From: Candidatus Harpocratesius repetitus | Lineage (GTDB): Archaea > Asgardarchaeota > Lokiarchaeia > Sigyniarchaeales > Promethearchaeaceae | Direction of reading: 5' to 3' | Length of the DNA: 32,000 nucleotides | Assembly: GCA_021498095.1 (NCBI GenBank) | Contig: JAIZWK010000001.1 | Coordinates: 1-32,000 of the forward strand | Part shown: one piece after another, positions 1-21,556 of the stretch | How the letters are laid out: the number at the start of each line of letters is the position of its first letter | How positions within the stretch are numbered: position 1 is the stretch's first letter | Position numbers and translations under genes: made by a program | The notes under the pieces: model-generated | Told to the model about the DNA's origin: nothing | Database searches by the model: none | Seen by the model: the letters and a program-made list of their open reading frames with translations, nothing else

Positions 1-123
1 TTATTTGTTACCAAAATTTAATGTACCTACTAATTTTTCTAAATCGTTTATTAATAGAAAAAACGCGATTTTAGGAAAAGAAAAAAGGGTTTATTGGTTT
101 AGAAAAAACGAAAGGTTTGTAAA

Positions 124-909
124 ATGTCATATCACACTCCAGGTATTATTTCTGATGGTGGATCAAAAACAACAATTTTTGCAGTTCGAACCACAATTGG
201 ACAAGAAAAATCGGTTTTACAAAATATTTTTAATCGATTACGTGTATTGAACCCATTTCCTGATTTAAAATGCATGATGATTGCAGAAGAATTACGAGGG
301 TATGTTTTTATCGAGGCAGTTCATCAACGAGATGTGATGATTGCAATCTCTGGATTACGACATGTAAAAGGTAAAATTGTTGGTTCAATTTCTTTAGAGT
401 CTATTGCTCACGTAATTTCACCCCGAAAGGTTACCGAAATTTTAGAAGAAGGGGATACAGTTGAAATTATTTCAGGAATTTTCACTGGTCAAAAGGCAGA
501 AGTTGTAAGAATGCCTAAAGAAGGTGCTAAAGAAGAGGTAACTTTGCGATTGTTAGATTCTGATTCCGCAATATCCATAAAAATTCATGGTGATTTTCTT
601 AAACTGGTTGAAAAAGGTGCGCGCCATCAAGAAGTATATGATATTAAAGAAATGGAAGAATTAAACAACACAACAATTCCATCTTCAAGTTTTTCAAAAG
701 ATGATACTAAGGTAAGAATTGCTGATTCTGACACTTCAATTTCTTCACATCCTGAAGAAATATTCTCGTTTGATTCTGGTGAAGAAGAGTTAGAAGAGAA
801 TGATAAAGAAGGAGAAGAAGAAGAATTTACTTCAAAAGAAATGTTTGAAAAATCAAAAGAAGAAGAAGAGGAAGAAGAAGAAGATGAATGGGCAAAATTT
901 GGTTTTTAA
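124..909 (+). CDS. spt5: Transcription elongation factor Spt5 (NGN + KOW) with long acidic C-terminal tail
   Basis: N-terminal FAVRTTIGQEKSV and LRGYVFIEA match the archaeal Spt5/NusG NGN domain; EGDTVEIISGIFTGQKAEV is a KOW motif; the last ~95 aa are Ser/Glu-rich. Confidence 0.92.
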   Translation: MSYHTPGIISDGGSKTTIFAVRTTIGQEKSVLQNIFNRLRVLNPFPDLKCMMIAEELRGYVFIEAVHQRDVMIAISGLRHVKGKIVGSISLESIAHVISPRKVTEILEEGDTVEIISGIFTGQKAEVVRMPKEGAKEEVTLRLLDSDSAISIKIHGDFLKLVEKGARHQEVYDIKEMEELNNTTIPSSSFSKDDTKVRIADSDTSISSHPEEIFSFDSGEEELEENDKEGEEEEFTSKEMFEKSKEEEEEEEEDEWAKFGF

Positions 910-975: not shown

Positions 976-2226
976 TTGATTGAGATGCATGGATTCTTAC
1001 ACATTTTCTTAATTCAGGTAGATACTGGAGAAATTTTAACAGAAATAGATAATTTGACATTAGATAACTCCTATTTTAAACTAGATTTTATGCAAATTCT
1101 TATAGAAGAGGGAATTGATTTAAAAAATACTGAGACATTAGTAAATGCTTCTCTAATTCAATTTCAATTAGAAAAAACCAAATTTCCTTTAGTTTATCAT
1201 TTCTTTTCCAGCAAGCATTTTATTCTTATTTTGATTGCCACCCATCACGACAAAAAAATTCAATTTTATATTGATCCACTGTTAGAAGATTTAGAACAAG
1301 AAAAAATAGTTTTTATGAACACAAATATTGTCGAAATGGTTGATGAACAGACAATTTCAGAAAAAAATACAAGCGAAATAAAGGGAAAAATTCAAAAAAA
1401 GAACGATTTTGATCAAAAAAATAGTGAAATTAACCAAGGAAAGGATTATTTTAGAAACCTTAAGAAATTTAGATTTTTACGAATGATTGCAAGGAATTTA
1501 GCTGAATATCTACTTCCCTCATTTTTGATTCCAGAAAAGCGATTTAATTATCAAATTCTTGATGTGAATCAACCTCCCGAAATATTTAATTACTTGAAAG
1601 AAATTTGCCAAAAAGATTATAATATTTCATTTTTAGATCAAATTTGGGAAAAATTAGATGGAACATGGTCGATTCTTGAATTTAGTGAAGTTTATTCAAT
1701 ATCAATTGATTCATTGCGAGAAATTTTCTTCTTTTTATGGAAAACAAATTTTGTTGTCTTACGAATGGAATACTTTCCATGGGACCGATTTAAAACAACA
1801 ATAAAAGCACCACTTTTTTTAGATGAAGGAAGTAAAGAAAATTTACTACTAGTTAATAAATTTAATTCGAATAAAATAATTCAAATAATTAAATATATTG
1901 GAGATGGATGTTCATACACAAATCTGGTAAAGAATTTTGATATTACTAAAACAAAGTTAAATATATATCTATCCGAACTACTTCAAAGGCAAATAATTCA
2001 AAGAGAAGAATATAAACCTGTACTTGAGATTATTCCTGAAGACTTGATCCCTCTTTTAAGCTTACAAGGATTTGAAAAAGAAGATTTTAAATTATTAAGC
2101 GATTTAGCAAAAATTTTGAATGGAACAAGAAGTATACGATCAGCTTCACTAAGATTGCAAATTGATCCTTCCCGAATAAAGGGTTTACTAGATAAATATG
2201 AATCAGCTGTTAAAATCTTGACTTAA
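976..2226 (+). CDS. Longin-like domain plus three winged-helix repeats; NPRL2/Npr2-like protein
   Basis: N-terminal alternating beta/alpha longin-like pattern; three wHTH-like segments (LDGTWSILEFS, IGDGCSYTNL, LNGTRSIRS) align without gaps to the human NPRL2 C-terminal domain as recalled from memory. TTG start at 976, alternative ATG at 985. Confidence 0.65.
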   Translation: MIEMHGFLHIFLIQVDTGEILTEIDNLTLDNSYFKLDFMQILIEEGIDLKNTETLVNASLIQFQLEKTKFPLVYHFFSSKHFILILIATHHDKKIQFYIDPLLEDLEQEKIVFMNTNIVEMVDEQTISEKNTSEIKGKIQKKNDFDQKNSEINQGKDYFRNLKKFRFLRMIARNLAEYLLPSFLIPEKRFNYQILDVNQPPEIFNYLKEICQKDYNISFLDQIWEKLDGTWSILEFSEVYSISIDSLREIFFFLWKTNFVVLRMEYFPWDRFKTTIKAPLFLDEGSKENLLLVNKFNSNKIIQIIKYIGDGCSYTNLVKNFDITKTKLNIYLSELLQRQIIQREEYKPVLEIIPEDLIPLLSLQGFEKEDFKLLSDLAKILNGTRSIRSASLRLQIDPSRIKGLLDKYESAVKILT

Positions 2227-3251
2227 GAAGGAAACCAATCGAGTAAATAAGCAAGAAATAGTAGTGCTGCAATAAAATCTGCAGTGGTCCCAGGATTTAA
2301 TTTTCCATTACTAGAATTTAACCATTGAGAAAAATTTTGATATAGTACTTTCCCAGAATCTAATAAAAGACCTCCTTCGTGAATAATTTTTTGAGCTCTT
2401 TTTTGGACATTATTTGCGATAATTAAAGAATTTTTCCTCAAAATAAGAGAATCTGGATAAGTAGCTAAGAATTTAATAAATAATTGCTGAATAATAAAGG
2501 ATGTATTAAGATTAATTTCATTTTTGCTCCTTCCTTTTTTTAAAGAATCATTATAAATGCTATAAAAATAATTTTTTAACCAAAATTGACAAATTTGATA
2601 ACCAAATACCCATTCTCTACTTATAAGATCATAATTCATGCTTTTTTGAAATAAATCAATCAAATGTATTTTATTTTTGTTTACATAACTAGGGAATTCA
2701 GGGTTTAGTATATTAAATTTTTCTGGGACATCATTCCCACCAGGATTAATTAATCCTCCAGGGCTCGCACGTTTGATAGCATCAGCAACTAAAATTGTAT
2801 CCTGTTCTGTGGTCTTTAAAATTGTTTCTTTTACTTCATTCCAAAAACAATTAAATTTAAATTTAGTTTTGGTTGGACTTTTATGTTTCAGTCTAAAAGC
2901 AGAAAGAATTAAAGGAGAAATCAGCAAAATATTTCCTAATAACAGATTTTGATGAGGCGGTGTCTTCATCATCACATTAACAATTTCCCAAATAAATTTT
3001 CCTAAATAAATTGATGAGAGTGAAGACATATGGGATAAAAGATATTCATTTATTGCATTATTTACATTCACATAATCTTGAAAAGTAATCTTATTGGTTG
3101 AATGCCATGGACTAATATTTCCGGGCTTATTAGTTGAAAATTCGAGTTTATTAGCATATTTCCAACTTAAAATTACTGATTGAAAGGACTCAAAATTGAA
3201 ATTTTGAGATAATATAAAAAGTCTGTTAGAAAGAAATCGCTGAAATCTCAT
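2223..3251 (-). CDS. citG: Triphosphoribosyl-dephospho-CoA synthase family protein (archaeal CitG-like)
   Basis: LEFSTNKPGNI, NLLLGNILL and LNPGTTADFIAA are CitG family motifs; 4-bp overlap with the convergent upstream ORF. Confidence 0.85.
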   Translation of the reverse strand: MRFQRFLSNRLFILSQNFNFESFQSVILSWKYANKLEFSTNKPGNISPWHSTNKITFQDYVNVNNAINEYLLSHMSSLSSIYLGKFIWEIVNVMMKTPPHQNLLLGNILLISPLILSAFRLKHKSPTKTKFKFNCFWNEVKETILKTTEQDTILVADAIKRASPGGLINPGGNDVPEKFNILNPEFPSYVNKNKIHLIDLFQKSMNYDLISREWVFGYQICQFWLKNYFYSIYNDSLKKGRSKNEINLNTSFIIQQLFIKFLATYPDSLILRKNSLIIANNVQKRAQKIIHEGGLLLDSGKVLYQNFSQWLNSSNGKLNPGTTADFIAALLFLAYLLDWFPS

Positions 3252-3382: not shown

Positions 3383-3682
3383 TTAAACTCGAGAGAGAAT
3401 TTGAAAACCCGAAGTCTCGCCTTTTGGTAAAGCTACAAGTTTAAATTCATCTTTTAACCCAGCTTGATAAATATATTTCTTAATTCGAAGTTTTAAAACC
3501 TTTTTTGATATAGAAATTGGAACTTCAATTTTTACAAGATTGCCGTCTTTCGAAATTTTACTATCAGGCACATTTTCTTCCAAGTATTGCATAATTTGTT
3601 CGATGTGTTTTTCTTTCATCGCAGAAATTTTACTAACATCAAGATGAAAAAGATTTAACTCGACTTTTTTTTTTCTAGCCAT
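3383..3682 (-). CDS. rpl22e: Large ribosomal subunit protein eL22 (L22e) homolog
   Basis: 99 aa, basic. FHLDVS..IEQIMQYLEE..ISKKVLKLRIKKYIYQAGLKDEFKLVA parallels eukaryotic eL22 [40 protein letters not shown] (reference from memory). Confidence 0.8.
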   Translation of the reverse strand: MARKKKVELNLFHLDVSKISAMKEKHIEQIMQYLEENVPDSKISKDGNLVKIEVPISISKKVLKLRIKKYIYQAGLKDEFKLVALPKGETSGFQILSRV

Positions 3683-3791: not shown

Positions 3792-6026
3792 TTATTTTTC
3801 AAGCAACTTCTTTTTGCTTGATTTTTTCTTTTCCCTTTGTGTGGGTTTCTTTTTAGAAGATACGGAATCTTCCTTTAATTTCTTGGATTGTTTTAATTTT
3901 TCTTTCAATTCTTTTACTCTGGCTAAACGTTCTTCTTCCAATTTTATTCGAACTTGCATTTCGCGCTGTTTTTCCGCTTGATTAATTTTTTCTTGCTTTA
4001 TTGCAATTAGACGATCTCGTTCTTGCTGTAATTTCTCAAGATTGGATAATTCTTCAGTTTCCTTTTGAAAGTTTTTGCTGGTTTCATCATCTGCTTTAAT
4101 GCTAGTTTCATTTTCTGGTTCATTGGTGGATTTTTTTCTCATTTGTTTATTCGAGTCACTTTTAGATTCGAGTCTAAGTTCGTCTCTTTCTAATTTTTCA
4201 TCACTTTCTTGTAATGGAGTGACTAACTTAGTTTCTTCAAGTGTTGAAACAAAATTATCTTGTTCTTCCAAATTAAGATATTTTAGTTGATCGATAAGAA
4301 AATACTTTTGATTTTCAGGAATTGATAAATTTTGAATTATTTCCTTTAATTCTTCTCGAGTTTCAGAATTTGGGTTATTAACTGCCGCGATTTCTTCAAG
4401 ATATTTTTTTTGTTGAGAATAATTTAGATAAATAAACGATTTGGCAATCATATTTCTTTCTTCTTCAGATATAGAAAGATTTAGCAAACTTTCTCTGATA
4501 TCAGGTTCTAATACAGTATAGATCTGACTAAAATCAAACTGAGACTCTTCTTCTTTTGATGGATGATGTTCAGTTGAACTTGAAGGTTTAGATGATTTTG
4601 ATGATGAAAAAGTTTCAGATAATTTTGATGTCTCTGATAATTCTGATAATTCTGATAACTCAGATAACTCAGACAACTCAGATAATTCAGACAACTCAGA
4701 TAATTCAGATGAAGTAGATGATTTCGATTGTTTTGATGGCATAGAATTATTACCCGAATCTGGAGAAGAAGACAATACGGATTTTGAAGGATGAAGTAAT
4801 GTTTCAGCTGTATTTACTTCATCTATTCTTGATGATGTTGCAGTTTGTTCTGAAGAAATCAAAGGTTTTCCAGTAAAAGGATCAAAACGTTTTGCATGTT
4901 TTAAAGGTTTACCTGTTAATGGATCAAAGTTAGCAACCTTCTTTTTGGGATGAGTTCTCTTTTTTGTTTGTGTTATAGGGGGTTGAAATGATTGTACTTT
5001 AGTTCTTAAATGAGGAGAAGAAGGGGGAATAATAGGCAAAACAGAGTCATTTGAACGTAATTGAGCAGGTTGAAATATTTCAGGAACTGGAAGAGTAAAT
5101 ATCTGAGGATTAAATATTTTAAATTCATTACTTATAACAAGTTGGGGTTCATATTTCCAATATTGCAAAAATTGTCTATTTAATGTCAGAGAATACTTTT
5201 TCCATTGATTTATATTCATATTTAATATTTGATTGTAGTTTTGCTGATTCGCTTTTTTGGTTGTTTGATATATTTTTTTATTTGATTTTAAAATTTGCTT
5301 ATAAGATTTAGTATATTGTGATTTAGCACGAGAGAATTGACGCCTATTTCTCCTTCTCAACCGCCGATAATTACGCTTTATTTTTGCAATTTCCTTTGGA
5401 TTTCCTCCAACTAATGTCAAAAGAGCAAGTTGATAAATCCGTTTGTTTTCTTCACGAGCTCTTCTAAAGATTTTTCTTAAATCATGAATAATTTTTTTAT
5501 ATTCGAATTTCGTTTGCTTTTTAGGTTGTTTATATCGTGATTTATTTATTCTCTTTGCATTTTTATAATCCTTTCTAATCTGTTTTTGTATGGTTTGAAA
5601 TTGTCGATATTCTTGTGTATTATTCAAACTTTTTTCTTCTTTTTGTGCAATTGGAGAAACTGGATGTGAAACATAAGAAGAAGTAGTTTTAAGGGATGTT
5701 TTTTGAGAACTAGAAGAATTATAATTTGATGATGAAAAAGTTGAATTCGTTATGGTTTTTGGATGTGATTCTTGCTTTTTATATCCAATTGATGGAGAAG
5801 AGATACTTTTTGATGATGATTGCTTTATAGCTTGAAATCTATGTTTATAATGTTCAAATTCAAATTTATTACCACATGATGGACAGTAAATGGTAATTCC
5901 TTCTGCCAAATCTTGAACCAATTCTGAATCAACCTGAGTACCACAAGTAGGGCAGAAAATTGAAGGAATTTTCGGTAATTTAGTTATTTTTGATATTTTA
6001 GGTATTTTATGGCTCATTTTTATCAA
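3792..6026 (-). CDS. Multidomain hypothetical protein: N-terminal zinc ribbon, basic 11-mer helical repeats, Ser-rich low-complexity linker, duplicated helical motif, C-terminal charged coiled coil
   Basis: CPTC..CPSC zinc ribbon at aa 25-51; aromatic residue every 11 aa from F143 to F286; (SEL)8 repeat; Lys/Glu-rich C-terminus. TTG start at 6026, alternative ATG at 6017. Confidence 0.8.
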   Translation of the reverse strand: MIKMSHKIPKISKITKLPKIPSIFCPTCGTQVDSELVQDLAEGITIYCPSCGNKFEFEHYKHRFQAIKQSSSKSISSPSIGYKKQESHPKTITNSTFSSSNYNSSSSQKTSLKTTSSYVSHPVSPIAQKEEKSLNNTQEYRQFQTIQKQIRKDYKNAKRINKSRYKQPKKQTKFEYKKIIHDLRKIFRRAREENKRIYQLALLTLVGGNPKEIAKIKRNYRRLRRRNRRQFSRAKSQYTKSYKQILKSNKKIYQTTKKANQQNYNQILNMNINQWKKYSLTLNRQFLQYWKYEPQLVISNEFKIFNPQIFTLPVPEIFQPAQLRSNDSVLPIIPPSSPHLRTKVQSFQPPITQTKKRTHPKKKVANFDPLTGKPLKHAKRFDPFTGKPLISSEQTATSSRIDEVNTAETLLHPSKSVLSSSPDSGNNSMPSKQSKSSTSSELSELSELSELSELSELSELSELSETSKLSETFSSSKSSKPSSSTEHHPSKEEESQFDFSQIYTVLEPDIRESLLNLSISEEERNMIAKSFIYLNYSQQKKYLEEIAAVNNPNSETREELKEIIQNLSIPENQKYFLIDQLKYLNLEEQDNFVSTLEETKLVTPLQESDEKLERDELRLESKSDSNKQMRKKSTNEPENETSIKADDETSKNFQKETEELSNLEKLQQERDRLIAIKQEKINQAEKQREMQVRIKLEEERLARVKELKEKLKQSKKLKEDSVSSKKKPTQREKKKSSKKKLLEK
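4632..4709 (-). repeat. 9-bp coding tandem repeat encoding (Ser-Glu-Leu)8-Ser-Glu
   Basis: Plus-strand triplets ctc tga (taa/caa ttc/ctc tga/aga)x8; variation between units is synonymous only. Confidence 0.95.
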
Positions 6027-15926: not shown

Positions 15927-17409
15927 CTTGAGTTTGTCAAAATAAAATAAATTTCTTCATATTTGATTTTTTGCATCGTTTTATCACGACAAAAATTGCT
16001 TGCTTAAAAAAGTAACCTTTAAATCTAAGGAACTCTTTGTTTAAATAAGCATGAAAACCTTGGGCTTCTACGACTTACCACACCAATTTCTAAAGAATAT
16101 ACTCCAAAATACCGTCCATCAAAGTCCTAATATGAATTACTTGATAGAACGTCTAATTACAGGTATTTTGGGTCAAGAAAAGCCTTCAGCTCGCAAGATC
16201 CATCAGGAACTTGTGGTTGGCGAAAGTTTGAAAACGTTTTATCGCCAGATTCATCACTTAGCTGCTCAAATGCCCTTTCTTTTCTCCAATATAATCAAAT
16301 CACTCCAAAATGGGTCTGATATTCCAATGAAAGTGGATGGAGTGTTGAGCATCGATGAACACTTAATTCCCCACACGAGCCCAAAGATGGAAGGGGTGGA
16401 TTATTTCCACTCTTCTTCTTCAAATGGGAAAATTTTGGCGCATTCGATCATCTCAACTCATTATTTTCGACGGGGGATTGAGTATCCTGTCTCGTTCCAG
16501 TTTTATCGGCGTGAGCGCGAGCTAGAAAAATGGGGTGAAATAGAAAGTTATCACAAAAAAAATGACATTGCCCAAGAGGAACTTGAAAAAATTTGTAAAA
16601 TGGCCAATTCGCCCAAATATGTCCTTATGGATTCCTATTTTATGACAAAAGAAAATTGTCGATTGCTCCAAAATTATAAAAAAACATATATTTCTCGCCC
16701 AAAACGCAATTGGAAAGGGACATTGGGCCACAAACGCCAAAGCTTGACTGAAATATTTGAAGGGATTCCTGACAGAGAATTTCAACAAACATGCATTCGA
16801 AATTCAAAAATAGGGTCGAAGAAATATTATTTAACAGCGAGTCGGAACATCTTTTTTCCCAAAATCGGAAACCATCAAGTAATTTTCGTTAAAATCTTGT
16901 CAGATACAGTACGATCGCCTGATCTCTTTCAAAATGTCGAAGAAACTGTAGATTCTCGTGGTTACGCTTTTCGGGTGTTTATTACCAATAATCTAGAGAT
17001 GTCCGTAGAACGAGCACTCTCTTTATACAGCCTTCGGTGGACAATTGAGACCGGTTACCGAGATATGAGCCAAAATTTAGGCCTTCATGGATGCATATGG
17101 CAAAATCTGAGCGGACAATACTGCTTTATTGGTCTGTCATTTCTGTGCTATATCTTTTTGATGTGGGCTCGGCATCGCGGTGCGTTTTCTCATTATGGTT
17201 TAGATTTACGAACGATAGGGCAACTACGAATGGCTTTTCGTCATTATTTACAAAGAGAATTTGCGGAATGGCTGGAGAAGATCCATCTTCAGTGTCAAGA
17301 CTGCAAAATGGCAAATTGGTTATATCAGCATGTATTTGTAGGAAGTTGAGGACAAAATACCGCATAAAGAAGAAAAGAAACAAATTTAAGTATTAATGAC
17401 AAACTCAAG
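15927..17409 (+). mobile_element. Intact insertion sequence, 1483 bp, IS4-superfamily (IS701-like) DDE type
   Basis: Perfect 13-bp terminal inverted repeats CTTGAGTTTGTCA (15927-15939 and 17397-17409), with a second match TAAATTT at IR positions 22-28; flanked by the direct repeat TATTATAA (15919-15926, 17410-17417); visibly more GC-rich than the flanks. Confidence 0.93.
16051..17349 (+). CDS. DDE transposase (IS701/IS4-like)
   Basis: LSIDEHLIPH (D1), VLMDSYF (D2), YSLRWTIETGYRDMSQNLGL (YREK-type catalytic Glu). Confidence 0.92.
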   Translation: MKTLGFYDLPHQFLKNILQNTVHQSPNMNYLIERLITGILGQEKPSARKIHQELVVGESLKTFYRQIHHLAAQMPFLFSNIIKSLQNGSDIPMKVDGVLSIDEHLIPHTSPKMEGVDYFHSSSSNGKILAHSIISTHYFRRGIEYPVSFQFYRRERELEKWGEIESYHKKNDIAQEELEKICKMANSPKYVLMDSYFMTKENCRLLQNYKKTYISRPKRNWKGTLGHKRQSLTEIFEGIPDREFQQTCIRNSKIGSKKYYLTASRNIFFPKIGNHQVIFVKILSDTVRSPDLFQNVEETVDSRGYAFRVFITNNLEMSVERALSLYSLRWTIETGYRDMSQNLGLHGCIWQNLSGQYCFIGLSFLCYIFLMWARHRGAFSHYGLDLRTIGQLRMAFRHYLQREFAEWLEKIHLQCQDCKMANWLYQHVFVGS

Positions 17410-18690: not shown

Positions 18691-19362
18691 ATGTTGGTTG
18701 CAGAAGAACTTATATTAATGAGTATATCGCCCGAAAATGGGAGCGAGATTTTTTTCAACGCCTGGAAAAATGTGAAAGCAGGAATTGCTGGAGCATTAAT
18801 TATGGATTTAGCATTATTAAGAAGGATTTTTTGCAGAAATGGAAAGATTATTTTACTCTCGACAAAATCTACAGGAGACCATCTTCTGAATGAAATCTTA
18901 GCCAATATTCAACGATCAGACTCTGCTAAGTCAATCGATTTCTGGGTTTCTGAAATTCATTCGAATATCCGTAATTTACAAGATCGACTGATTGAACGAA
19001 TGGTAAATCAAGGTATAATAGAACGAGAAATTCATCCTGCAAAATTCGGAATGAAAACCTACTATCCTATTGTAAAGAAGGAAATCTACCGCGATATCTT
19101 GAATCGAATCCAATCACTTGAGTATGCAAACGAAATTCAAGATTTTCACACGTATACATTGGTATATATCCTGCAATCTTGCGGATTGAATAAATTATTT
19201 CGATCTCACCACATGAATTTGCCAACAGTACGAATATCATCTTCAAAGATTTTTAGTTTAATTGAGCAGGAAAAGCGAACAACAAAACAATATGTTAAAG
19301 AATTACTTTGCAACATAAGCACCTATATCAGTCGAGAGCATGTAATTTCAATCGCAGTCTAA
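18691..19362 (+). CDS. GPP34 family (GOLPH3/Vps74-like) protein
   Basis: LVAEELILMS, GIAGALIMDLAL, TGDHLLNEIL and RMVNQGII are the GPP34 family pattern. Confidence 0.85.
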   Translation: MLVAEELILMSISPENGSEIFFNAWKNVKAGIAGALIMDLALLRRIFCRNGKIILLSTKSTGDHLLNEILANIQRSDSAKSIDFWVSEIHSNIRNLQDRLIERMVNQGIIEREIHPAKFGMKTYYPIVKKEIYRDILNRIQSLEYANEIQDFHTYTLVYILQSCGLNKLFRSHHMNLPTVRISSSKIFSLIEQEKRTTKQYVKELLCNISTYISREHVISIAV

Positions 19363-19430
19363 ATATTCAGAATATACCAAATCGAATCAAATATGTAACA
19401 TACAACAAAATAAAACATATTTACATTATG

Positions 19431-19463
19431 AGAAAAAGGTGAAGCACCAGCTTCCTTTTTTCT
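19431..19463. terminator. Hairpin between convergent genes; possible bidirectional terminator
   Basis: GAAGC-ACCA-GCTTC core, extendable through AGAAAAAGG/CTTTTTTCT to about 14 bp with one bulge and one G:U pair; lies between the GPP34 and Rab-like stop codons. Confidence 0.45.
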
Positions 19464-19514
19464 TCTCCGCTTTTTACTTAGGATAAAAGGGTAAAGTGAT
19501 AATTAAAAAAATAA

Positions 19515-20099
19515 TTAATTAATTTCTTTACCGCAATAAGTACAAAAATGGAGATCCTTGGCGATAATTTCATGACAATGAGGACATTCATCCAGTGTAT
19601 TATTTACAATCATTCTTGTGATTGTTTCGAAAACTTGATCAACATTCTCTCCCGTTTTCGCTGAACATCTTAGAACACCATCAATTTCGTTCAGATGTAC
19701 AAATTGTTCAATGTCTTTATCAGATATTGATGCAGAATCTTTGAGATCGATTTTTGAAATTACTAAAAGTTTAATCATTTTTCCAGATGAATTATTGATT
19801 AATTCCATCCAATTATTAAGATCGAAAAATGATTCCTGATTAGATATATCAAAAAGAATTAAAGCACCGCTCGAGCCACTTATATAACCAGGAAATAAAG
19901 AACGGAATTTTTGTTCACCTCCAAAATCCCAAATACTTAATTGAATAGATTTTTCATCAAGCTCTAGGCGTTTAATCATAAAATCAACACCAATCGTTGA
20001 AATTGTTTCAGATTGGAACGTCCCATGAATATACCGGCGAATCAAAGATGTTTTTCCTACATCTTTTGCCCCAGCTACAATAAGTTTTAATTTTATCAT
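19515..20099 (-). CDS. Rab/Ras-like small GTPase with C-terminal zinc ribbon
   Basis: G1 GAKDVGKTS, G2 STIGVDF, G3 WDFGG, G4 SKID, G5 CSAK; C-terminal CPHC..CTYC. Confidence 0.92.
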   Translation of the reverse strand: MIKLKLIVAGAKDVGKTSLIRRYIHGTFQSETISTIGVDFMIKRLELDEKSIQLSIWDFGGEQKFRSLFPGYISGSSGALILFDISNQESFFDLNNWMELINNSSGKMIKLLVISKIDLKDSASISDKDIEQFVHLNEIDGVLRCSAKTGENVDQVFETITRMIVNNTLDECPHCHEIIAKDLHFCTYCGKEIN

Positions 20100-20332
20100 C
20101 TTATCCCCTTCTGAAAAAAAATATAATTATTTATTTTTTAATATATCACTAAATCATTGTTTTTTTCTCGGTTATTTAAATTATTGTATATAGTTTGACG
20201 TCATTTGAAAGCAAAGCATATAATATCTATGTTTTTAAGAATTCATAGAAATCTTTTCTTTTTTTTATCTTTGTAAAATAAATATTAAAATAACATTAAT
20301 AGGATAAGATTACAAAGTAAATAACAGTTAAA

Positions 20333-21556
20333 ATGAAAATACCGGGATCTTTTTTTGAAGTTGAACTAATGCTGAAAGATGAACTGATTGAATTCCTCAT
20401 AAAGAAGCAGAATGTTATTGAATATCGTGCACACATTATGGATTTTTCTGAGATTGAGATAGATTTGCCCGAAATCTTAGAAGAGAACCAAATTTTTGTT
20501 CCAAAAAATAGATTAGAACGAATTTTGCAAGAATTGGAAGCTCAATATATGGAACTTCTTCAAGAACAACGTGAGATCCAAAACCAACATTTACAAAAAC
20601 AAAAAGCTTTCACACAAGGATATCAAGCTTTAAAAACGCAAAGAGAAGATGTAAAAATCCTATTAACCGGCGGTTCTGGTAAATCATCTATTTATCAAAT
20701 TATTTTTGAAGGTAAATTAGCTAATGAAATTCAAACAACTATTCCAACCCGTCGTATTGAAAAACATAATTTAGATTATTCATTTCTTTCCAAACAGAAT
20801 CGAGGTCAAAAACTAAAGATTTGGGAGAGTGGTGCTGAATTTCCTAATGATGATTTTTTTAAAAATGGTACCATTCTTTTATTCATAGTTGATGCATTTA
20901 ATGTGGAATATTATGAACAAGCAAGATTGAATTTGCATAAAGCTATAGAAAAAATCAATAAATTTGGCACAAAAACTCCACATCGAGTTAAAAAACATCA
21001 AAATGTTTTCTGTTTCATCCATAAAATGGATAGATTTCAAAAAATATCAGAAAAATTCAATTCATTAGTTAAATATTTCAGAACTAATCCAAAAGATGGT
21101 AAAATGGTCAATAATATCACCTTTTTTCCAACCTCAATTTTCGATTCGAGTCTTTACAGGGCTTGGACCCAAATTGTAGAAAATCTTATGCCGAAATCAT
21201 CTAAACTTGACCAAATCTCAAATCAATTAAAGGAAGAATTAGGCTTATATACAGTTTTGATCATTGAGAAACGAACAGGCTTACCAATTTGTGCATCGAA
21301 GACTTTGCTTGATGATGCAACCTTAGTTGGAACGACAAATCGGATAATTATTACAATTGAAAAAGTACTTTCAGATTATAAATTAACGAATTTACGAGAA
21401 TTGAGAATAGATACTGCCACAGGGTTTGTAAAGGTTCATATTTTTAATCAATATTATATTCTTCTACTAATTTGTCCACCTAATGTAAATATGGAGACAC
21501 CTGCTGCAAAAAAGAAATTGAAAGATTTTCTAGAAGATATGAAAAATTACATTTAA
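20333..21556 (+). CDS. RagA/B (Gtr1)-like GTPase domain plus C-terminal roadblock domain, with N-terminal helical extension and degenerate G1/G3
   Basis: FIHKMD (Rag-type G4), TSIFDSSLYRAWTQIVENLMP (cf. RagA [21 protein letters not shown], from memory) and VLIIEKRTGLPI at the roadblock start. Alternative ATG at about 20369. Confidence 0.82.
   Translation: MKIPGSFFEVELMLKDELIEFLIKKQNVIEYRAHIMDFSEIEIDLPEILEENQIFVPKNRLERILQELEAQYMELLQEQREIQNQHLQKQKAFTQGYQALKTQREDVKILLTGGSGKSSIYQIIFEGKLANEIQTTIPTRRIEKHNLDYSFLSKQNRGQKLKIWESGAEFPNDDFFKNGTILLFIVDAFNVEYYEQARLNLHKAIEKINKFGTKTPHRVKKHQNVFCFIHKMDRFQKISEKFNSLVKYFRTNPKDGKMVNNITFFPTSIFDSSLYRAWTQIVENLMPKSSKLDQISNQLKEELGLYTVLIIEKRTGLPICASKTLLDDATLVGTTNRIIITIEKVLSDYKLTNLRELRIDTATGFVKVHIFNQYYILLLICPPNVNMETPAAKKKLKDFLEDMKNYI

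Follow-up and report, generated by a model that had tools for sequence, protein, structure and literature searches.

In eukaryotes, GATOR1 is the GTPase-activating protein (GAP) that switches off the Rag GTPases and TORC1. The catalytic arginine of this complex, Arg78 of the human protein, is supplied by the NPRL2 subunit from within its longin domain. The second NPRL subunit, NPRL3/Npr3, is, at 569 aa and with large inserts, the longer protein and functions only within a heterodimer with NPRL2; the complex further includes DEPDC5/Iml1. Here we describe a gene of Candidatus Harpocratesius repetitus (Asgardarchaeota, Lokiarchaeia, Promethearchaeaceae), located at positions 985..2226 of the forward strand of contig JAIZWK010000001.1 (assembly GCA_021498095.1), the product of which resembles NPRL2 and NPRL3 equally. 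The stretch of DNA that was analysed, referred to below as the window, comprises the first 32 kb of this single closed contig of 4.36 Mb. The original prediction, made from the sequence of the window, had interpreted the frame at 976-2226 as an NPRL2-like protein.

Asgard proteins described as "NPRL2-like" have been reported from most Thorarchaeial and a few Lokiarchaeial metagenome-assembled genomes (Liu et al. 2020, 10.1101/2020.10.19.343400; later Nature 2021), so the suspicion, voiced in the original prediction, that the family may not be new was correct. An asCOG named "NPRL2-like longin domain" has also been used as a category of eukaryotic signature proteins for Lokiarchaeum ossiferum (PMC9834061). 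The protein described here belongs to this "NPRL2-like" superfamily and has the architecture reported for its members, namely a longin domain followed by an NPRL2-type C-terminal domain (CTD). However, the Thorarchaeial members examined here (loci L022 and L024) are encoded side by side as two paralogues with a MinD/ParA gene after them, whereas the Lokiarchaeial form is single-copy, lacks an associated MinD, and resides between spt5 and the genes for an eL22-like and a CitG-family protein. Other longin regulators of Rag and Arf GTPases, FLCN-FNIP and C9orf72-SMCR8, also pair via their longin domains and carry both the arginine finger and the GP motif, but their C-terminal regions are DENN domains rather than winged helices, and they are absent from the top structural matches to our protein in the PDB, in the VIA scan and among the Swiss-Prot AlphaFold models.

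We regard the gene as a genuine, very divergent homologue of NPRL2/NPRL3, whose product would act as a non-catalytic scaffold of the NPRL type, and we estimate the probability of this joint statement at about 0.6. Its two parts differ in strength: homology with NPRL2/NPRL3 is very probable, while a putative function as a platform for GTPases is a tentative proposal, with chances somewhat short of even.

The reading frame at 976..2226 on the forward strand is uninterrupted and, according to the list of open reading frames (ORFs), comprises 416 codons counted from a TTG. The frame itself is thus as originally predicted, but its start is not: position 976 offers only the in-frame TTG, while the conserved ATG (MHGF...) lies at 985. 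Because the homologues begin at this ATG (methionine in 24 of the 26 aligned sequences), it was kept as the start and, judging from the alignment, the coding sequence most likely spans 985..2226, stop codon included, and encodes 413 aa. Residue numbers given below nevertheless refer to the 416-aa translation from the TTG and not to the 413-aa form. The gene is single-copy, as the sequence profiles A1 and A2 match one locus only in the closed genome at E<=10. The gene and the segments of its product are as follows.

985..2226, + strand: NPRL2/NPRL3-like coding sequence, from the ORF list, with the MHGF start of 24 of the 26 homologues; sole genomic copy
985..1323, + strand: longin core, residues 4-116, with no conserved arginine and no GP motif
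1324..1443, + strand: low-complexity insert, residues 117-156, predicted to be disordered (pLDDT, the per-residue confidence of the model, 26-43), gapped and unconserved in alignments A1 and A2
1444..1620, + strand: long helix 158-179, EYLLPxFLIPE motif, short strand and helix 202-215, from the models and alignment A1
1621..1803, + strand: winged helix 1, residues 216-276, with an IDGxW motif and Arg263 in the wing; aligns with NPRL2 192-259 (block 1)
1804..2025, + strand: winged helix 2 and the helices leading into it, residues 277-350; aligns with NPRL2 ~260-333 (block 2)
2026..2223, + strand: C-terminal helix-turn-helix (HTH) module 3, residues 351-416; positional equivalent of the C-terminal HTH of NPRL3/NPRL2 (block 3)

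This architecture was derived from two AlphaFold2 models. The model of the full-length protein, built with nine homologues, is of moderate quality (pLDDT 68, predicted template-modelling score (pTM) 0.67); the model restricted to the C-terminal 260 residues (157-416), built with 25 homologues, is considerably better (pLDDT 92.8, pTM 0.86). In the full-length model the N-terminus adopts the longin fold, with the topology bb-a-bbb-a at residues 7-115 (strands b1 7-14, b2 20-27, b3 60-63, b4 72-78 and b5 82-88, helices a1 38-44 and a2 95-115), in agreement with the longin-like N-terminus noticed in the sequence and with the bb-a-bbb-aa type of longin domain that is found at the N-terminus of NPRL2/NPRL3. 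The longin core is followed by the disordered insert, which varies among the homologues from about 0 to 100 aa, and then by the long helix 150-179, which packs back onto the longin domain in the model; structural alignments of the longin domain in the VIA scan reach model residue ~180. The motif EYLLPxFLIPE (residues 177-187) is the most conserved one of the family, and its columns E177-E187 are invariant in A1. In the CTD-only model the remainder of the chain consists of three HTH modules (~216-276, 277-350 and 351-416), the first two of which each terminate in a beta-hairpin wing, so that the three winged helix-like segments of the original prediction are all present.

When the full-length model was compared with the PDB by Foldseek, as the original prediction had proposed, ranks 1-15 were occupied exclusively by GATOR1/SEACIT chains (yeast Npr2/Npr3 and human NPRL2/NPRL3), with E-values from 2.6e-7 to 7e-3 and alignments of 390-600 columns that cover the whole protein. 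Generic longin proteins, such as zeta-COP, the sigma-adaptins and VAMP7, rank below these chains. The full-length matches have template-modelling scores (TM-scores) near 0.3 and root-mean-square deviations (rmsd) of 12-19 Å, which indicate that the angles between the domains differ, and not that the domains themselves match poorly. When 48,161 chains were scanned exhaustively with VIA, NPRL2/NPRL3-type chains again took the top two ranks, well separated from matches to single winged helices, and all modules agreed in order, number and packing over 214-233 residues. Among the 550,129 Swiss-Prot AlphaFold models, ranks 1-26 are taken without exception by NPRL2/Npr2 or NPRL3/Npr3 proteins of animals and fungi. 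The structural alignments of the CTD extend to model residues 250-257 of 260, and the three tandem modules superpose as one unit on the CTD of NPRL2/3. Since the first 26 Swiss-Prot matches are all NPRL proteins, the three-module tail as a unit is NPRL-specific. Thus, instead of generic winged-helix matches with neither an NPR2/NPR3 match nor a longin fold, the structural comparisons returned a longin domain joined to an NPRL-type CTD.

These results uphold the kinship with NPRL2/NPRL3 but not the choice of NPRL2 over NPRL3 made in the original prediction. The structural scores for NPRL3/Npr3 and NPRL2/Npr2 are tied, lying within about one Z unit of each other, and because of this tie the protein cannot be assigned to either of them and no NPRL3-specific orthology can be claimed. 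With NPRL2/Npr2 (in GATOR1/SEACIT; PDB 6CES, 7T3A-C, 8FW5, 8ADL, 9H4Q, 9O5A) it shares the longin domain, the connecting helix and the three winged-helix/HTH modules, as well as a similar size (380 aa in NPRL2 versus 413 aa here) and a weak collinear sequence match over winged helices 1 and 2 (NPRL2 192-333). On the other hand, the Lokiarchaeial protein, unlike NPRL2, has a disordered insert separating the longin domain from its last helix.

The two proteins also differ in their catalytic signatures, as NPRL2 carries both Arg78 and the GP motif between strands b1 and b2, and the Lokiarchaeial protein carries neither. In alignment A4, which comprises twelve vertebrate NPRL2 sequences (effective number of sequences about 1.4), R78 and G20 are invariant and P21 nearly so. 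The sequences of the longin domains do not align, and R78 is placed in the b4-b5 loop on the basis of the GATOR1 structures. In our protein this loop (residues 79-81) reads SKH and is variable in the family; across the 26 aligned sequences of the family, none of the longin columns contains a conserved arginine, which agrees with the failure of the original prediction to locate an arginine finger and extends it to the whole family. In the same alignment there is no GP motif in the b1-b2 loop: glycine is found there in 12 of the 26 sequences but is never followed by proline, the next residue being Glu in our protein and mostly Phe, Lys or Asn in the family. Because the arginine finger and the GP motif are both absent, the role of a "catalytic GAP subunit" cannot be transferred from NPRL2. 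The genome also lacks matches to the other two components of GATOR1: profiles A1 and A2 detect no paralogous NPRL partner at E<=10, although one of similar structure but too divergent for sequence searches may exist, and the IML1 family PF12257 of DEPDC5/Iml1 has no match at E<=1. With these absences the protein looks like a non-catalytic NPRL scaffold of a pre-duplication type rather than a proven Rag GAP.

It could be argued that the protein is nevertheless an active GAP for a host Gtr1/RagA-like GTPase, with the catalytic residue contributed from a non-homologous position (for example a lysine or the conserved Arg263), by a partner or by the GTPase itself. Its overall architecture is that of the catalytic GATOR1 core, and potential substrates are not lacking: Rag/Gtr-like GTPases are abundant, with 37 matches to PF04670 in the genome, 14 of them below 1e-15, which amounts to at least 14 Gtr1/RagA-like paralogues, and the best of them (1.2e-30) is located at 20333..21556, ~18 kb from the NPRL-like gene. 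Moreover, some Asgard longins have been suggested to retain the arginine finger as well as the GP motif (PMC12290439). However, the longin domain of our family has neither, and the GP motif, which precedes longin strand b2 in NPRL2, is also absent from NPRL3 and from other longins that are not GAPs (PMC12290439). The sole conserved arginine of the family, R263, lies in the wing of winged helix 1, far along the sequence from the longin face, and its aligned residue in NPRL2 is a valine. Finally, the orthologues of the GTPase at 20333..21556 do not track the NPRL-like family, and we find an unconventional GAP activity unlikely.

The same GTPase was considered as a specific partner of the NPRL-like protein, for which its phyletic pattern gives no support: its clear orthologues are confined to a part of the family-level clade, and none was found at E<=1e-20 in the sister-family genus g7, which does carry the NPRL-like gene. 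Its gene belongs to a cluster of eukaryote-signature genes at 18691-21556, with the following members.

18691..19362, + strand: GPP34/GOLPH3-like gene (1.4e-25)
19515..20099, - strand: Ras-family GTPase gene (4e-40), with a C-terminal zinc ribbon
20333..21556, + strand: Gtr1/RagA-like gene, 407 aa, with ~107 extra N-terminal residues; the genome's best PF04670 match

At the level of sequence the relationship to NPRL2/NPRL3 is weak yet positionally consistent. The CTD profile A3 identified human NPRL2 (6ces_N) with HMMER over residues 185-259, 75 residues without a gap, at E 0.3. In the comparison of A2 with the vertebrate-only NPRL2 alignment A4, hhalign aligned 130 columns (residues 219-351 with NPRL2 192-333; P 0.0033, probability 9.7%), and slices of the CTD gave P 0.0015 with a probability of 16.7% against vertebrate NPRL2, collinear with the structural superposition. 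In the last module, hhalign finds block 3 as its best local alignment, which is not significant (P 0.076). The HTH_NPRL3 family PF24064 nevertheless matches the last module in 6 of the 26 family members, all below threshold (best 3.5e-5, 24.1 bits versus a cut-off of 27.2), and its best match in the six-frame translation of the entire genome is the last module of the NPRL-like ORF (E 0.64). Thus, of the three gap-free blocks shared with NPRL2 according to the original prediction, the first was recovered by HMMER and the first two by hhalign; the third is not significant by sequence, and is supported by structure and by the sub-threshold PF24064 matches. In addition, the motif DG-x-[RKH]-[ST] is common to the NPRL-like protein and NPRL2 and opens winged helix 1 and the third module at equivalent positions. 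PDB sequence searches, made with the protein alone and with its full-length profile, returned only p300 and eL20, which were discarded as spurious low-complexity matches. In a language-model atlas eukaryotic NPR2 clusters rank no higher than 12 and 34 (0.79 and 0.75), which we treat as a lead only.

Several observations weigh against the reading of the protein as an NPRL homologue and scaffold. The original prediction had proposed to look for a match to Pfam NPR2 (PF06218) or NPR3 (PF03666), and none was obtained: neither the protein nor its 26 relatives match these families at E<=1, and the genome, translated in six frames, gives none to PF06218 at E<=10. The hhalign probabilities amount to only 10-17% despite the small pairwise P-values, and between the longin domain and that of NPRL2 no sequence similarity is detectable by hhalign. 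No partner of the NPRL-like protein was found, and the Rag-like GTPase at 20333..21556 does not co-vary with the NPRL-like family across the order. Moreover, winged-helix modules are common, and three of them could conceivably have come together behind a longin domain by convergence.

If such convergence had occurred, an unrelated longin protein would have independently gained three winged helices and would be an analogue of NPRL2/3. The lack of a significant database-level sequence match to NPR2/NPR3 is what this scenario would lead one to expect, and both longin and winged-helix domains are abundant and promiscuous in Asgard archaea (10.1101/2020.10.19.343400). However, chance assembly accounts poorly for the agreement in the order, number and packing of the modules over 214-233 residues, for the collinear sequence signal (P 0.002-0.003), for the DG-x-[RKH]-[ST] motif at equivalent positions of the first and third modules, and for the PF24064 matches, which land on the equivalent module. 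We therefore consider convergence very unlikely.

The closest database protein is a partial hypothetical protein of "Candidatus Harpocratesius sp." with 83% identity; a word-indexed search returned eight relatives, all of them hypothetical proteins of the Loki group; and an exhaustive profile search of 1.84 billion cluster representatives returned 34 proteins, none of them eukaryotic. The family comprises two subgroups, mutually 21-23% identical (A2). Among 301 Asgard genomes the profile matches 132. A full-length protein is found in all six other sampled genomes of the source organism's family-level clade and in one genus of the sister family (4/4 genomes); in two other genera of the sister family it was found in 0/28 and 2/22 genomes. 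In a large and different family 64 of 76 genomes are matched, but the match covers the last two modules only, and each genome carries 1-4 copies, often arranged in adjacent pairs; the two loci of this family that were examined look Thorarchaeial, and hhalign relates our family to both of the paired Thorarchaeial proteins over the second and third modules with probabilities of 96.2% and 97.1%. Beyond these two modules, identity among the Lokiarchaeial, Thorarchaeial and eukaryotic NPRL proteins is too low to align them meaningfully. The Lokiarchaeial form is Lokiarchaeales-specific and single-copy, and it is equally similar to NPRL2 and NPRL3, which looks like what is expected of a pre-duplication or unspecialised NPRL form.

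At the two Thorarchaea-type loci (L022:840-3858 and L024:788-3891) the adjacent paralogous longin-winged helix genes encode proteins of about 302-320 aa and 425-427 aa, and each pair is directly followed by a gene for a MinD/ParA-type ATPase (AAA_31/ParA, 1e-15 to 1e-17). Many of the profile-matched genomes show a similar pair, spaced by ~1.3 kb.

The genomic context of the Lokiarchaeial gene is different. As originally predicted, it lies directly downstream of spt5, separated from it by 75 nt, and it is flanked by the following genes.

124..909, + strand: Spt5, 261 aa, with NGN (1.6e-14) and KOW matches in Pfam; the genome's only NGN match
2223..3251, - strand: CitG-family (triphosphoribosyl-dephospho-CoA synthase-like) gene, Pfam 2e-34, with synteny followed by tblastn
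3383..3682, - strand: eL22-like protein, 99 aa, with a weak match to PF01776 (5.9e-4); neighbour in five related genomes (L010-L013, L015)

Immediately 3' of the spt5 stop codon, within the 75-nt spacer, there is a small T-run hairpin (TTCATC-TTTTT-GATGAA), followed by AT-rich sequence, and from these elements it is possible that the NPRL-like gene has a promoter of its own. The CitG-family gene is convergent, its stop codon overlaps that of the NPRL-like gene, and it is kept as a neighbour within the family-level clade. The order of spt5, the NPRL-like gene and the genes for the eL22-like and CitG-family proteins is retained in four genera of this clade, with one rearrangement. In the sister family, spt5 lies directly upstream of the diverged gene of the second subgroup (~25% protein identity). 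Five sister-family genomes without the NPRL-like gene have, after spt5, a gene for an unrelated protein of ~250 aa, with eIF1A on the other side; the protein, with a weak match to Fuz_longin_1 (1.7e-3) at its N-terminus, is represented as follows.

L028:463-1215 (- strand), L026:436-1182 and L030:2378-3127: ~250-aa protein encoded after spt5

We considered this protein as a truncated or diverged copy of the NPRL-like protein, and discarded the idea as hhalign shows no relationship between the two. It may be a feature of the whole order that spt5 is followed by a gene for a longin protein. In the source genome, genes for eIF1A and an FtsJ methyltransferase are located ~3 kb upstream, across the contig junction, and the neighbourhood is one of information-processing genes.

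The retention of this synteny with the sole spt5 gene across Lokiarchaeales raises the question of whether the protein could be a DNA-binding transcription factor, in which the tandem winged helices would contact DNA, with a sensory or partner-binding role for the longin domain; a tie to Spt5 would explain the adjacency of the genes. The Pfam matches of its relatives may be read in the same direction: they are sub-threshold to borderline matches to TrmB, HTH_24 and HTH_47 on the second and third modules, with those to TrmB falling just under or just over the cut-off in some relatives and covering a single module. The protein itself gives only sub-threshold hits to HTH_45 and z-alpha, over residues 299-348 in winged helix 2. 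The isoelectric point (pI) of the CTD, 8.6 in the source copy, also fits DNA binding. However, the CTD is not basic across the family, being mostly acidic (median pI 5.8), and the structural matches to DNA-binding winged-helix proteins span one module only. We regard a transcription factor as unlikely. It is tempting to go further and to propose that the placement of a longin gene immediately after spt5, be it the NPRL-like gene or that of the ~250-aa protein, each in the company of eL22-like, eIF1A and rRNA-methyltransferase genes, reflects functional coupling, in which a GATOR1-type scaffold relays a GTPase or nutrient signal directly to the machineries of transcription elongation and the ribosome. 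If true, eukaryotic growth control would have had, in the spt5-coupled scaffold, an ancestor without TOR, but we put this forward as a highly improbable speculation.

The following observations on the window are given for completeness. The tail of Spt5 after the NGN and KOW domains consists of ~95 aa, Ser-rich and then poly-Glu, which is unusual for an archaeal Spt5; its orthologues in related genomes measure about 253-269 aa. The ORF at 2-250 (+ strand) seems to continue a frame of >444 aa from the contig end (L040:2669-4000) across the numbering origin and overlaps the annotated spt5 start by ~127 nt, while the relatives of Spt5 align from residue 14-15 on; given the overlap, the true spt5 start may be later than annotated. 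Further downstream, 3792-6026 (- strand) encodes a 744-aa low-complexity protein with an N-terminal double CxxC zinc ribbon-like motif, a strongly basic repeat region and SELSEL tandem repeats. A DDE transposase (PF01609, 9e-11) is encoded at 16051-17349 (+ strand) between a NUDIX gene and a gene for a protein of the metallo-beta-lactamase fold, and is probably an insertion sequence.

Returning to the NPRL-like protein as a homologue of NPRL2/NPRL3 and a non-catalytic scaffold, we propose that its longin face would be the docking site for a small GTPase, of which the Gtr1/RagA-like paralogues of the genome would offer a supply, or for a roadblock or longin protein, while the winged-helix tail would mediate protein-protein assembly, probably by self-association in place of the NPRL2-NPRL3 heterodimer. 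Such a protein would not be an arginine-finger GAP of the NPRL2 kind.

The family and its "NPRL2-like" interpretation have already been published, and the advance made here is incremental. In the literature that we searched, we did not find a description of the entire NPRL CTD in a single-copy Lokiarchaeial protein, or of both GAP signatures missing across the subfamily; nor did we find the conserved linkage with spt5, which seems to be undescribed. The value of the locus lies in this linkage and in the well-defined construct that it offers for structural and binding studies. It is a clean, high-confidence example, in a closed Lokiarchaeial genome, of the presence of the whole NPRL CTD and not of the longin domain alone. 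The origin of the NPRL2-NPRL3 core belongs to the wider problem of the Asgard roots of nutrient signalling and GTPase regulation in eukaryotes. If the Lokiarchaeial protein resembles the ancestral form, the scaffold function would have come first, with the paralogous heterodimer and catalysis as a GAP appearing later or in other lineages.

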